64,000 nucleotides of DNA from an uncultured Chloroflexia bacterium (GCA_963841825.1 CAWJEL010000021.1:7260-71259), one strand, 5' to 3'. Positions 54,736-59,492 are shown, numbered from the stretch's first letter. Notes: generated by a model not told the origin, from the letters alone. Translations and numbers: made by a program.

Positions 54736-55239
54736 AGTTCATCCCTTGGAACTGTGGCGCCACCGACCCGGGCGCGGTTTTCATTGGCCTGTGTACCAGG
54801 TTTCAATGCTGTCCATGCCATCGACCGCAGCCCTCGCACGCAGGTCCAGTTGACCGTCCAGATGTTAGCACTTGCATCGAATGTCTCGAGGTCGCGCCAA
54901 GTCGGGTTGTTCGTGCAGGCATCGCCGTTGGACGTTCTCGTACGTGCTGGCGGTGGCGATCCCACAAATACGGCCGCTGAAGCAGGATTTCATATTTTCA
55001 GCGGTGTAAAAAAGCCAGGATGGCAGACAACGCATAGCGTTTGCCACGCGCTTCAGGAAGTCGGGAATCTCGACAGGAACCTCATTCAAAGGGATAATCG
55101 ACGTATGCACAACATCACCGCGTCTGTGGTTTCTCTTATGTGGGCGATACTACGCCTTCCCTACTCTTGATTTCAGGCGTGCCCGACGCCTACCGCCCTT
55201 TTTGTCTTAAAACTGAATGAATTCTGGCACCAAAAAGGC

Positions 55240-55268
55240 TTGACATATTCTTGGAAACTCCCTATAAT
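55240..55268 (+). promoter_or_regulatory. Perfect consensus sigma70 promoter TTGACA-17 nt-TATAAT
   Basis: TTGACA 55240-55245, spacer 55246-55262 (17 nt), TATAAT 55263-55268. About 210 nt upstream of the first island gene. Confidence 0.7.
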
Positions 55269-55484
55269 GTGCTTGCATGAACAGGGCGAGTCTGGAGGGC
55301 TATGATCTCCGTAGTGTCCGTCTTCGCTCACACTTCGCTACCCGCCGCTTCGTCGCCGAGTTATAATTCGGCGCTGGACGGTTGGCTTGGTTCCGCGCTC
55401 GATATCTCCTTGACCTTCCGACTATCCAACTGCGCACGGTTCCCAGATGGCTTCACCTGCCTGCAAAGAATGTGAGAGTCATTG

Positions 55485-56607
55485 ATGGCTGCCGATACTA
55501 TAAGGCTCAACAACCAACAGCTTAGAAGACTATGGCGACGCCTTATTATTGTTCTACTGACACTCGCTGCCACAGTGGCTGGAATCGCCCCTGCATTGCT
55601 TTTTCTCGATCATTCGGAGTGGCTCTGGCTGTTCGCTGGGGAGGCAATGGTGCTTACGTTTGTCTACGTGTTTTTCATGTGGACTACCTATGCGACCAAC
55701 GCTCCTGGGTTCTGGGAGTTCCTGCTGGGATGGTTGGGTGCCATCTGTCCGCCGGCGATCTTGGGGCTGCTTTGGCTTTTGGTTTATGGTATCCTCTTCG
55801 CCGCATGCGGCTTGATATGGGGTATCCAACCCCCTCCCGCAGTCCTCATTTTTACCCTGGTGCTCGCAGCTCTCTGCGGGTTATTCTTTATCCTGTTCTC
55901 TTTTATGAACCTCGCAGAACAGCTCTACCCGAATTCGGCTGGGATACAATCCGCATTCTACGGCTTGCTCAGGCAAAAGGGGTGGCAGCGTGTTTGGGGC
56001 ATTGCCGGCGTCGCAATGGTTGGTGCTGTAGCGGCGACCTTAATGCTCCCGGAGGTCTTGTTCCACATCGCGTTAGTGCTTCTGCTGATTGCGCTCTGCG
56101 TCGTGAGCGCTCCGTGGTGGCTAATGAGCGCTCAGGTGAGTCGAATGGGAAGAGATGATAACGCGGTCCAGACGGTAGAGAAGCTGTTTCAGAAGGCAGG
56201 CTATGAGTTCGAGCGTGACCCGAGAACAGGGAAGGCCGACGTTCGATCCTCTTCTCACTGATCTGGATGTGCTGGCCCGAAAGGGAATCGAGAACCATCT
56301 TGTGAGGGTCGAGTCAGAGCACTCCACCGGACAACTTGTGAACTGGACAGCGGCCGCAAAGCTGAGTATGGCCGCGACGCTCTTGGTGCAGGAGCGTGGT
56401 CTGGCGGCAGAGAGTACCGATTTTCGGCTCATCCTGTTTGATGTTGAGGCTGATGAAAGCCTCGCTGCGCCTGGTATTGCAGACGGTGTCAGGATTGTGA
56501 GGTTGAAAGCAGACAGAGTCGCTCAAGTCCTTGATGGACGGATGGGAGACAAAGAACAGCAGGGGGAAGCCATGCAATTGCTGGACTTGGGGAGTGCGCC
56601 AGGCTAA
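55485..56607 (+). pseudogene. Polytopic (about 7-TM) membrane protein fused to a restriction-endonuclease-like (Mrr-cat-like) cytoplasmic domain; frame change near 56238
   Basis: TM-rich ORF 55482-56261 ends ...QTVEKLFQKAGYEFERDPRTGKA. The +1 frame (ORF 56203-56607) continues TFDPLLTDLDVLARKGIENHLVRVESEH.... The LF..AGYE / D.DVLA / VRVES spacing resembles the Mrr-type REase core. Weak, by eye. Confidence 0.6.
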
Positions 56608-56650
56608 TTCGCTGGCCTTGAGAAGTTCTTTTGATCCGGGGTGGTGGATC

Positions 56651-57716: not shown

Positions 57717-58892
57717 ATGTCTAAAGTCAGCCTCGAGAAGACAGATCGCGACAAATTGGGCGATATCATAGCCAATCAAGCCGATCAGAACGCCCGCGCC
57801 TTCGGAACGGCTCAACGTTACCTGGAAGACCTCATTGATCGCACGAATTGGCCAGGCGCCTGGAAGCGCAAGCGTCGCTATGCTCTTGGGACGTATCCGC
57901 CACGTGATGCTCTGGCATTGATCGACTGGGCGCTCAACCAGGGCACCATTCCTGAAGGTGAGGGCCAGGGATATACCACGCTGGGCAGTCTTCTTGAGGT
58001 CCTCATGCCTGACGTGGGACAGGAAGATCGACTATACCTTGCAGCGGTTATTGCAACCTACCAACTCTATAGGCCGGTCGCATCCCCACCTACGCTCGGC
58101 GTTCATTCCCCTGAAGCGAAGGGAACGACAGCACAACTGAGGGTCTTAGGCCCCGACTTCGAGTGGAAGGGGCCTGATAACGAACTCGAGCTTCAGGCAT
58201 ATCTGAAGCCCGAGCCTGAATTGGTGGACGTTGGCGCTGCAATACGCTTTTGGACGCACGCCTACGAACAAGCCGCTTCGGTCTGCAGGATAGAGTTCGA
58301 GAATATCCCGGGCAGGCAAGGAACCGGTTTTCTGATCGCTAAGGGTCTTGTCCTAACCAACTACCATGTGCTTGCCAACCCAGACGATGCTAAGGATGAC
58401 GCCGATGCAAACGCCCGACATCTCACGCTATGCTTTGGCAAGATCTCCATGACAGGTGGCCAGGCAGCAAGCGAACAACGGTACAAACTCTCTGCGGATC
58501 AGCCAATTGCCGCCCAAAGCTCCGTGGAAGACCTGGACTTTGCCCTATTGCGGACCGAAGAGCGTCTCTGGGAAGAGGAGGGCATCAGACCTCTTCGTCG
58601 CAGCTTGACGGTTCCCGGCGAAAAATCGGCGATTCACCTGCTTGGCTATCCGGTAGGTGAGGATCTACAACTTGCGCGGAGCATGAGTGGCGTGACCTGG
58701 GTAGATGAGAAGCATGGCAAGATCCAGTATTGGACGCGAGGCGAACCTGGGATGAGTGGTTCACCGGGCTTCGATGACGACTGGAATGTGGTGGCCGTTC
58801 ACCATGCAGAGAAAGAGGTGTTCGCAGGCACCAGAAGGGAGGGCATCCTTATCGCATCGATCTACCAACAAGTCAAGGAAATCGTCGGCTAA
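57717..58892 (+). CDS. Trypsin-like serine protease with an N-terminal adaptor-like domain
   Basis: Triad context GTGFLIAKGLVLTNYHVL (His), DLDFALLRT (Asp), GEPGMSGSPGF (Ser). N-terminus TNWPGAWK...PRDALALIDWALNQGTIPEGEG...LGSLL...DVGQEDRLYLAAVIATYQL parallels the previous protein's C-terminus. Confidence 0.85.
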   Translation: MSKVSLEKTDRDKLGDIIANQADQNARAFGTAQRYLEDLIDRTNWPGAWKRKRRYALGTYPPRDALALIDWALNQGTIPEGEGQGYTTLGSLLEVLMPDVGQEDRLYLAAVIATYQLYRPVASPPTLGVHSPEAKGTTAQLRVLGPDFEWKGPDNELELQAYLKPEPELVDVGAAIRFWTHAYEQAASVCRIEFENIPGRQGTGFLIAKGLVLTNYHVLANPDDAKDDADANARHLTLCFGKISMTGGQAASEQRYKLSADQPIAAQSSVEDLDFALLRTEERLWEEEGIRPLRRSLTVPGEKSAIHLLGYPVGEDLQLARSMSGVTWVDEKHGKIQYWTRGEPGMSGSPGFDDDWNVVAVHHAEKEVFAGTRREGILIASIYQQVKEIVG

Positions 58893-58962
58893 AACCGACC
58901 GCGTGGGCGGAATGCTAGGGACGGCGGTCCAATTTCGTATCCAAGAGCACAGGAGGCTATCC

Positions 58963-59364
58963 ATGAGTCGTCGCATTGTCACCGAGAAGTGGAACACCAG
59001 CGACACGCGACCGTTGGACAACTGGGCCGACAAGGTAACCAAGTCCATCCCGGCGGATGTTGTTGCTGGGTGGGTCGGCGTTACAGGGCTTCTGGCAGCC
59101 CGGCCGAGTAATATCACACTGCTGTGGATCCTGTTCGTGGTGTTCGTAGCGATCACGATTGCGTGGACTTGGCGACAGACGCAAGAGGGCGACAAGCCCG
59201 TGGCCAAGGTGCAAATCGCCATTTCCACATTTGCATTTGTCTTCTGGGCCTTTGCGTTTGGCGCCCCATTCAATTCACTGCCATTCTACCAACCTGAGTT
59301 GGGAGCCGCGCTTCTCATCGTGTTCAGCTTGATCACCGCCGTGATCCCAGTGAAGCAGCGGTAA
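58963..59364 (+). CDS. Small 4-TM membrane protein
   Basis: ATG 58963 with AGGAGG 7 nt upstream. 133 aa with four hydrophobic segments (VVAGWVGVTGLLA, LLWILFVVFVAITIAWTW, IAISTFAFVFWAFAFGAPF, LGAALLIVFSLITAVIPV). Confidence 0.75.
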   Translation: MSRRIVTEKWNTSDTRPLDNWADKVTKSIPADVVAGWVGVTGLLAARPSNITLLWILFVVFVAITIAWTWRQTQEGDKPVAKVQIAISTFAFVFWAFAFGAPFNSLPFYQPELGAALLIVFSLITAVIPVKQR

Positions 59365-59463
59365 GGTTGCGTGTTGATCACGCTGGCAGATGAACCGGTG
59401 GGCAGACACTTCCATTACAAGACCCCCTGCCAGGTCTCTAATACCACAACCGCCAGCTTGTGA

Positions 59464-59492
59464 CCTATTGGGTGGCCTATCCGCCCAATAGG
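59464..59492. repeat. Hairpin CCTATTGGGTGG-CCTAT-CCGCCCAATAGG
   Basis: 12-bp stem with one mismatch. The corrected stop codon of MttB paralog 3 (59477-59479) sits in its loop. Confidence 0.6.

Follow-up and report, generated by a model that had tools for sequence, protein, structure and literature searches.

The DNA analyzed here is a stretch of 64,000 nucleotides (nt) from an uncultured Chloroflexia bacterium (GCA_963841825.1, CAWJEL010000021.1:7260–71259), referred to below in its entirety as the window, and the element under study is an AT-richer island at 54736–59476 that carries four genes, A–D. A preliminary description, made from the sequence alone, had proposed that this island encodes an uncharacterized membrane/protease module and is a candidate conflict or defense system. 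The compositional drop that it placed after the stop codon of a response-regulator gene is borne out by 500-nt windows, the G+C fraction being 0.51–0.57 within the island (54750–59499) against 0.62–0.68 in the flanks; the windows upstream (54000–54999) give 0.63–0.67 and those from 59250 onwards 0.61–0.68. The left edge lies just after the regulator (Response_reg and GerE domains), which is itself preceded by a HisKA_3 histidine kinase, and the right edge adjoins a convergent MttB-family gene whose open reading frame (ORF) ends at 59518. All four genes lie on the plus strand as described, with the caveat that the frames of A and B are each interrupted as deposited, and the promoter in front of gene A is indeed a perfect consensus element, for which the chance expectation in the stretch is, by our estimate, about 2e-3. 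The hairpin at the right border, on the other hand, does not overlap the MttB stop at 59518 as had been stated, but sits about 25 nt past it. The features are collected in Table 1.

Table 1 Features of the island and its borders, numbered from the first nucleotide of the window. RBS, ribosome-binding site; TM, transmembrane; L072, second copy of the cassette
Feature	Position	Strand	Basis or remark
AT-richer spacer, response-regulator stop to promoter	54736–55239		G+C 0.52–0.54; no credible gene
Sigma-70-type promoter, TTGACA-17-TATAAT	55240–55268	+	12/12 consensus positions
Leader of about 215 nt, 5′ of gene A	55269–55484	+	95.5% identity to L072
Gene A, 6-TM with C-terminal PD-(D/E)xK domain	55485–56607	+	Frame broken near 56243; intact orthologue P0045, AlphaFold2, Foldseek
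Gene B, N-domain (about residues 45–235) and divergent C-terminal EAD8 (about 57355–57684)	56651–57687	+	Single-ORF homologues, EAD8 profile
Gene C, 391 aa, EAD8 (57717–58076), conserved linker, trypsin-like protease (about 58270–58889)	57717–58892	+	Pfam, homologues
RBS AGGAGG	58951–58956	+	6 nt 5′ of the D start codon; read from the sequence
Gene D, 133 aa, 4-TM	58963–59364	+	Hydropathy segments 28–46, 51–69, 85–103 and 112–130
3′ end of the segment common with L072	59365–59426	+	blastn alignment stops at 59426
Hairpin with 9-bp stem (CCTATTGGG ... CCCAATAGG), between cassette and convergent MttB	59464–59492		Read from the sequence

Gene A is deposited as two ORFs (55485–56261 and 56203–56607) that become a single frame when one extra T near 56243 is removed, as judged by comparison with P0045, an intact orthologue of 372 amino acids (aa) and 86% identity. 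A profile built from P0045, P0049 and the window fragments was searched against 1.84 billion proteins and recovers a family of 295 cluster representatives at E ≤ 1e-3 (202 at E ≤ 1e-10), most of which are 370–420 aa long and match end to end. An AlphaFold2 model of P0045, calculated with a 125-sequence alignment (predicted local distance difference test score, pLDDT, 92.4; predicted template-modeling score, pTM, 0.85), shows six TM helices and, at the C-terminus, an α-β-β-β-α-β domain. The preliminary description had read the protein as an approximately 7-TM segment fused to a restriction-endonuclease-like domain; the fold is supported by the model and by Foldseek, whereas the TM count has to be lowered to six. 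In the PDB, the Foldseek matches of the soluble domain are AF1548 (1y88), NucS (2vld, root-mean-square deviation 3.8 Å over 126 columns) and Hjc (1ob8, 4tkd), and further the FokI cleavage domain, Nt.BspD6I and XisH. The Foldseek probabilities are 0.9–1.0 overall (1.00 for 1y88 and 2vld, 0.97–0.99 for Hjc), and the weakness of the E-values (≥0.017) is explained by the use of the whole protein as query. For the TM part, Foldseek gave no credible match in the PDB, sequence-profile searches of the PDB and Pfam gave nothing significant for A, and lenient Pfam scans gave only isolated sub-threshold matches (NA-iREase3, 0.074; PDDEXK_5, 0.12), which by elimination fall on A domains.

The conserved columns of the A family, i.e., G-Y, P-R-T-G, D253 (119/125), D260 (109/125), E/Q/D273 (81/125) and K/R275 (88/125), correspond in the alignment to a PD-(D/E)xK signature with the consensus D...(E/Q/D)xK. 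The predicted α-β-β-β-α-β core and this family motif are those of NucS, Hjc, AF1548 and the FokI cleavage domain; unlike these enzymes, the A domain is tethered to a 6-TM domain, and in the proteins of the window and of the second copy, L072, R273-V-E275 stands in place of E-x-K, so that the catalytic residues are not retained there. Because of this non-canonical motif, the domain of the window protein probably binds rather than cuts. An arginine-rich N-terminus together with the even number of helices would, by the positive-inside rule, place the soluble domain in the cytoplasm.

Gene B is likewise deposited in two parts (56651–57028 and 56860–57687) with a frame change near 57000–57010, and homologues that span both parts in a single ORF are found in four related loci (L007, E = 7.5e-13; L003; L010; L073). 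Its N-domain of about 190 aa is kept in about 17 members at about 20% identity and has no match in Pfam, NCBIfam, the PDB or profile searches, the lenient Pfam scans included; a word-indexed homology search with the repaired B returned nothing at E ≤ 0.01, and a search of the same kind with a concatenated A+B profile returned only the window fragments, P0045 and P0049, TM-rich words having dominated the candidates. A direct relation between the A soluble domain and the B N-domain, as a route to homotypic contact, was considered and dropped after three hhalign runs with probabilities of 0.4% to 15%.

The C-terminal part of B is more informative. Residues 242–341 of B and 15–117 of C share 36% identity (BLASTP E = 2e-14), which is the domain of about 100 aa that had been noticed in the two genes, and which had been likened to the effector-associated domains (EADs) of prokaryotic conflict systems. 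That comparison holds: homologues of C carry the Pfam domain EAD8 (PF19961), a profile built from them matches the C-termini of B proteins, and among the 15 loci in which both B and C are matched, the C protein of the same locus ranks first for the EAD8 of B in eight. For the window pair, the score within the locus is 146, and the scores with other loci average 51. With the Pfam model itself (gathering cutoff 27 bits) the window C remains below the cutoff at 15 bits (E = 0.042) and the window B is not matched, and across the B family 2 of 13 members reach E ≤ 0.01, the best at 1e-14. Judged by these profile comparisons, the C-terminal domain of B is a divergent EAD8.

Genes C and D are both intact. 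The identification of C as a trypsin-like serine protease is confirmed by Pfam Trypsin_2 (PF13365, E = 8.3e-16) and by a catalytic triad, H217, D274 and S347, that is invariant in an alignment of 31 sequences; 44 database homologues were retrieved, many of which combine PF19961 and PF13365, and an exact look-up of the window protease found no record. D is, as had been described, a 4-TM protein with a strong RBS. Its homologues (35–48% identity) are located directly 3′ of the protease gene in at least 78 of the 89 non-redundant loci of the protease clade. None of 31 D-family members matches Trypco or any other specific family in Pfam, and there is no NCBIfam family; D was looked for in a phage collection without a match and in a plasmid collection with one, from Fischerella. 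An assignment of D to Trypco1/2 is ruled out, since 0 of the 31 members have a Pfam Trypco match and Trypco (Pepco) is a β-barrel former of about 117 aa.

The preliminary description had pointed to conservation of the gene neighborhood as a check of its proposal, and the four genes do travel together. For this analysis, 146 loci were gathered from genomes and metagenomes with the protease as query, and all of their ORFs were scanned with home-built profiles of A, the B N-domain, EAD8, the protease and D. At least 12 other loci, none of them identical, have the order A-B-C-D; they belong to Anaerolineae, Acidobacteriota and Planctomycetota or come from soil or freshwater metagenomes. The order is seen in L003/L011/L089 (from an Acidobacteriaceae metagenome-assembled genome, MAG), L010 (Anaerolineae), L073, L078, L079/L006 (Urbifossiella), L086, L090, L100 and L159, is truncated by contig ends in L082, L084, L115 and L156, and is represented by B-C-D in L007/L080 and L093. 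Look-ups anchored on A, which form an independent sample, gave A-B-C(-D) for P0049, P0100 and P0190, and A with a cut B for P0055. Wherever enough sequence is present, the gene after A encodes the B N-domain, and the C-terminal slot of B holds EAD8 or, in one locus, TIR. In this last case (P0150/L158, 1672–4022), the protein encoded after A combines the B N-domain (E-values, 3.6e-26 overall and 7.5e-26 for the domain matched) with TIR_2. The protein after that contains a NACHT N-terminal helical domain (NNH2) together with a GDPGSGKT P-loop, and in this variant the A-B core is linked to a STAND protein.

The protease and D, for their part, are combined with many other partners. EAD8-trypsin-D is found with a receiver-EAD8 protein (L008), with a CHASE2 protein that has an N-terminal EAD8 (L001) and with a 599-aa multi-TM protein with a C-terminal EAD8 (L015). 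Most of the protease-D loci are cyanobacterial, and there the protease has a different N-terminal adaptor and is followed by EAD1-VMAP-C, a MoxR-like AAA+ protein and vWA-FGE, an arrangement that corresponds to the VMAP ternary system described by Kaur et al. in 2020; one cyanobacterial C-D pair resides on a Fischerella plasmid beside a reverse transcriptase. The C-D pair is a module of its own that is exchanged among unrelated cores. As to proximity to known defense islands, which the preliminary description had posed as a question, TIR, nSTAND1-FGE and caspase genes (L073), caspase together with an integrase fragment (L159), and NACHT genes lie next to related loci; in the window, the neighbors are housekeeping genes.

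Several of these loci show variations of the basic arrangement. The Anaerolineae locus L010 is expanded (1688–7420) and contains A, a B with a weak match to the EAD8 profile, a 224-aa EAD8-EAD7 bridge, a second adaptor-trypsin, a 735-aa ORF ending in EAD8-trypsin, and D, which suggests adaptor chains. In L076, L104 and L105 the protease ORFs are about 1000 aa long, with 600–780 unclassified residues before EAD8-trypsin. D comes next in L104 and L105, and all three of the long ORFs may have arisen by fusion with partner proteins. An extra D-like gene precedes A in L079 (1306–1908; order D-A-B-C-D), and in L156 (1712–2179) a 155-aa protein with a D...E-I-K motif precedes A and D is missing downstream. 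L004/L012 and L003/L011 carry cassettes with equal gene lengths after an ATP-synthase epsilon gene; of the two MAG contigs concerned, one is labeled archaeon. The genes downstream differ and D is cut to 68 aa in one contig, a discrepancy that points to mis-binning or local rearrangement.

One further copy is close enough for a comparison at the nucleotide level. In a blastn alignment, positions 9779–13947 of L072 (ENA ERZ25039527, contig_67688) correspond to 55263–59426 of the window with 92% identity and 41 gap positions, and the flanks are unrelated to those of the window, with an AF2212-like/PIN toxin-antitoxin pair and gyrA upstream and UvrB downstream. The island is thus horizontally mobile. 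The homology extends from the −10 box to about 60 nt past the D stop, and L072 has its own promoter at the equivalent position, TTGACA-17-TACAAT; the moved unit is therefore one promoter-to-terminator operon. The spacer of about 500 nt in front of the promoter is not common to the two copies, and its only notable ORF (54865–55110, minus strand) has no Pfam match. The hallmarks of a classical genomic island (integrase, tRNA target, flanking direct repeats) are absent at the window copy, in agreement with what had been reported for it: neither an integrase nor a transposase is seen in the island, the sole ARAGORN tRNA call in the window is at 45037, and there are no convincing flanking repeats. 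The island DNA has no match in the plasmid and phage collections. A link to the adjacent two-component system was rejected, as L072 has the cassette without two-component genes.

The leader between promoter and gene A is 95.5% identical between the two copies, compared with 85–97% in the coding regions. It has no Rfam match and its predicted folding is no stabler than that of shuffled sequence (z = +0.83), and a regulatory RNA in this segment was dropped as a candidate for these reasons.

The comparison with L072 also bears on the state of the window copy. The ratios of nonsynonymous to synonymous substitution rates (dN/dS) between the two copies are 0.28 for the protease, 0.34 for D, 0.43 for the EAD8 of C, 0.24–0.58 for B and 0.54–0.66 for A, and out-of-frame controls give 0.8–1.5. 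Since the in-frame values are below the controls, selection has acted on these frames after the two copies separated, including the parts of C and D in which L072 shows many apparent frameshifts. At the frame change in B, the window is one base short and L072 has one base extra relative to the in-frame sequence. Several of the single-base indels between the copies are located beside GATC (window positions 56243, 57002–57008 and 57580), e.g., GTTCGATCC, GGAT-A versus GGATCA, and GCGATCGG, a pattern that would be compatible with errors of base calling where a motif is methylated in assemblies of long reads. Furthermore, the flanking MttB gene (59518–61195, minus strand) is split between two frames, with residues 22–107 of the MTTB model on ORF 60575–61195 and 134–462 on 59518–60675, either by an assembly indel or because it is a pseudogene. 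A count of frameshifts across the window from overlapping frames with high G+C at third codon positions proved not to be a discriminating method.

On the basis of the coding constraint relative to the 92% identical copy, the split MttB gene, the base pattern at the B site and the GATC-adjacent indels, the frameshifts in A and B are likelier to be assembly indels than real lesions. The opposite reading, that the frameshifts are real, the cassette is dead in this genome and the island is the decaying rest of a module that once functioned and was probably costly, is unlikely in our judgment, though it carries some weight. It draws on the two-ORF state of A and B, on the deposited proteins of the contig, which are fragments (P0046, P0047, P0048), on the indels of L072 in C, D and at the same B site, and on the relaxed constraint on A; however, the low ratios for C and D (0.28–0.43) persist across the L072 frameshifts, which argues that the indels are younger than the divergence or are artefacts, a site that is one base short in one copy and one base long in the other is odd for descent and typical of systematic base-calling error, several indels adjoin GATC, the neighboring MttB gene is split in the same way, and C, D and the promoter are intact.

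The closest described relatives of this arrangement are the EAD-coupled, nucleoside triphosphate (NTP)-dependent conflict systems, which, according to Kaur, Burroughs, Iyer & Aravind (eLife 2020, PMC7159879) and Kaur et al. (eLife 2021, PMC8195603), include EAD8-nSTAND1-FGE together with EAD8-trypsin, and the VMAP-MoxR-vWA ternary systems. As in these systems, the same small α-helical adaptor (EAD8, PF19961) occurs in the products of two adjacent genes of the cassette, one copy is fused to a trypsin-like peptidase (C), and the effectors vary, trypsin being attached via EAD8 or replaced by TIR. Adjacent EAD copies are also the closest to each other, in agreement with the behavior of EADs described in the 2020 paper (PMC7159879). 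Moreover, trypsin-D pairs of the clade of C are physically part of cyanobacterial VMAP-MoxR-vWA-FGE loci. In contrast to the described systems, Pfam, NCBIfam and six-frame scans detect no MoxR, vWA, VMAP-C, STAND, iSTAND, GTPase or Walker A in the island, the pattern [AG]xxxxGK[ST] being absent from all six frames of 54736–59476 as the preliminary description had already noted, and the core to which the EAD is attached is instead the unclassified B N-domain, always preceded by the 6-TM restriction-endonuclease-fold protein. In its composition, the cassette resembles the EAD-coupled systems without their defining NTPase core.

A second comparison is with protease-effector modules that are activated by site-specific cleavage, a group that comprises Pepco (= Trypco1/Trypco2), EACC1, an MBL-fold nuclease, an α/β-hydrolase and bacterial gasdermin (Evans et al., bioRxiv 10.1101/2025.11.14.688446). 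Pepco proteins, about 117 aa long, are β-barrel pore toxins that become active on C-terminal cleavage, and activation by adjacent proteases has been shown experimentally for Pepco, EACC1 and gasdermin (bioRxiv 10.1101/2025.11.14.688446). C and D resemble these modules in that a protease gene is followed by a small partner with which it is co-inherited behind many different sensors, and in that D is predicted to act at the membrane. They differ in that D is a 4-TM α-helical integral membrane protein, which is outside the Pfam Trypco models and outside the ten families surveyed in the same preprint. By this analogy, D is probably a protease-activated membrane toxin.

No named defense system accounts for the cassette, as the preliminary description had also concluded. 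With PADLOC-DB v2, A, B and D have no meaningful match, and C is hit through its protease domain alone (RT-Protease_XI, LmuA, Avs1b). Kiwa (KwaA/KwaB) and Zorya couple a polytopic membrane protein to soluble effectors without a STAND NTPase, a general logic that the cassette shares; there is no evident sequence relationship, and the PADLOC models that cover both systems do not match A, B or D. Because there is no Pfam, NCBIfam or PADLOC model for A, the B N-domain or D, all three are invisible to current defense annotation; at the same time, the profile searches placed none of the four genes in a housekeeping pathway. Neither the A-B pair nor the D family was found in those passages of PMC7159879 and PMC8195603 that term searches brought up, or in bioRxiv 10.1101/2025.11.14.688446; since supplementary tables were searchable only in part, an earlier listing there may exist.

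Taken as a whole, the evidence leads us to favor, with reasonable but not high confidence, a reading in which the island is a horizontally acquired promoter-to-terminator operon encoding a four-component, abortive-infection-type conflict system that operates on the EAD principle without an NTPase. In this system, A and the B N-domain would form the sensing core and C-D the output, an assignment based on the constancy of A and the B N-domain, on the variable C-terminus of B, which is an adaptor or an effector (TIR), and on the exchange of C-D among unrelated cores. A and the B N-domain would act as a constant sensor at the inner face of the membrane, and the trigger would be perceived at the membrane or on DNA, with phage DNA entry and membrane perturbation as candidates. 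On triggering, B is proposed to cluster, and its EAD8 to recruit and concentrate C through EAD8-EAD8 contacts, whereby C may be activated by proximity. The activated protease would then cleave D, and cleaved D would permeabilize the membrane and kill or arrest the cell; these last two steps follow the example of Pepco, EACC1 and gasdermin, which are activated by the proteases encoded next to them.

A more far-reaching version of this scheme, which we regard as speculative, holds that A and the B N-domain represent an undescribed NTP-independent membrane sensor core, with about 300 clusters at 50% identity, whose effectors are fired by Death-like homotypic EAD recruitment, and that D would be a new family of trypsin-activated 4-TM toxins used also by the VMAP-MoxR-vWA systems of multicellular cyanobacteria. 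If the favored scheme is correct, an EAD adaptor-protease output can be driven by a nuclease-fold membrane protein without an NTPase, whereas EAD systems have so far been defined around MoxR-vWA, STAND proteins and GTPases. Protease activation by homotypic adaptor clustering could then be studied in a simpler system of four genes, and D, as a widespread and unannotated 4-TM partner of trypsins, would be a candidate addition to the protease-licensed death effectors.

A number of points weigh against the proposed conflict system. Defense, toxicity and cleavage of D are all steps that we infer. The window neighbors (the histidine kinase/LuxR-type regulator pair, MttB and urocanase) are housekeeping genes and form no defense island; the frames of A and B are broken in the window assembly, and that of B is broken at the same site in L072, so that a real lesion common to both copies is conceivable. 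Most A loci were found through the search with C, which biases the rate at which A-B is seen with C-D upwards, and the A-anchored look-ups with enough downstream sequence number five, four with trypsin and one with TIR. In addition, D has no recognizable autoinhibitory segment or known pore-former fold, the single-sequence AlphaFold2 model of B (pLDDT 33.8) is unusable for the fold of the N-domain, and a contact between A and B finds no support in the hhalign comparison of the A soluble domain with the B N-domain, which was not significant.

The polarity of the system could also be the reverse, with D or the TM domain of A as anchor or sensor and the protease releasing or activating the tethered nuclease of A as the killer. 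Restriction-endonuclease domains are common effectors in such systems, most A-family members keep the canonical D...(E/Q/D)xK, and the VMAP-associated trypsins are seen as signaling peptidases and not as terminal effectors by Kaur et al. 2020 (PMC7159879). We nevertheless consider this arrangement distinctly unlikely, in view of the movement of C-D as a unit among unrelated cores that lack A, of the TIR domain fused directly to the C-terminus of B, which puts the EAD8-recruited module in the position of the effector, and of R-V-E in place of E-x-K in the A proteins of the window and L072. For members with an intact E-x-K, the A nuclease is a more plausible effector, and a possible one.

It is improbable that the cassette is a non-defense module of regulated intramembrane or juxtamembrane proteolysis, engaged in envelope stress or membrane-protein quality control and similar to conflict systems through its adaptors alone. 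Such a function would suit two membrane proteins and a protease that adjoin a two-component system in the window, as well as the receiver-EAD8 and CHASE2-EAD8 partners, which are signaling domains; however, the cassette is patchy across phyla, is atypical in composition and is no part of a conserved core gene set, the L072 copy is located at an unrelated locus without two-component genes, and the linkage is to TIR, NACHT/nSTAND, caspase and VMAP-MoxR-vWA-FGE systems and to a reverse transcriptase of the diversity-generating retroelement type. Still less probable is an addiction or stabilization module of a mobile element, or an intercellular weapon, in place of antiviral immunity, because the compact promoter-to-terminator unit, the integrase fragments beside some copies (L159, L001) and the related C-D pair on the Fischerella plasmid are set against a window copy without integrase, transposase or repeat, an A protein without a DNA or protein match in 72,556 plasmids and 50,697 phages, and the lack of a secretion signal or toxin-delivery domain on any of the proteins.

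Outside the island, two regions of the window deserve mention. The ARAGORN call, a tRNA-Pro (CGG) at 45037–45128, is located inside long ORFs on both strands (43621–45972, plus; 44587–46080, minus), so that either the call may be false or the overlapping ORFs may be spurious. At 46340–49651, two long ORFs on opposite strands, with lengths of about 1100 and 1050 aa, overlap each other, and the plus-strand one has no Pfam match; since the adjoining minus-strand gene is HlyD-like, the minus-strand ORF is probably the real gene and likely encodes an efflux pump.

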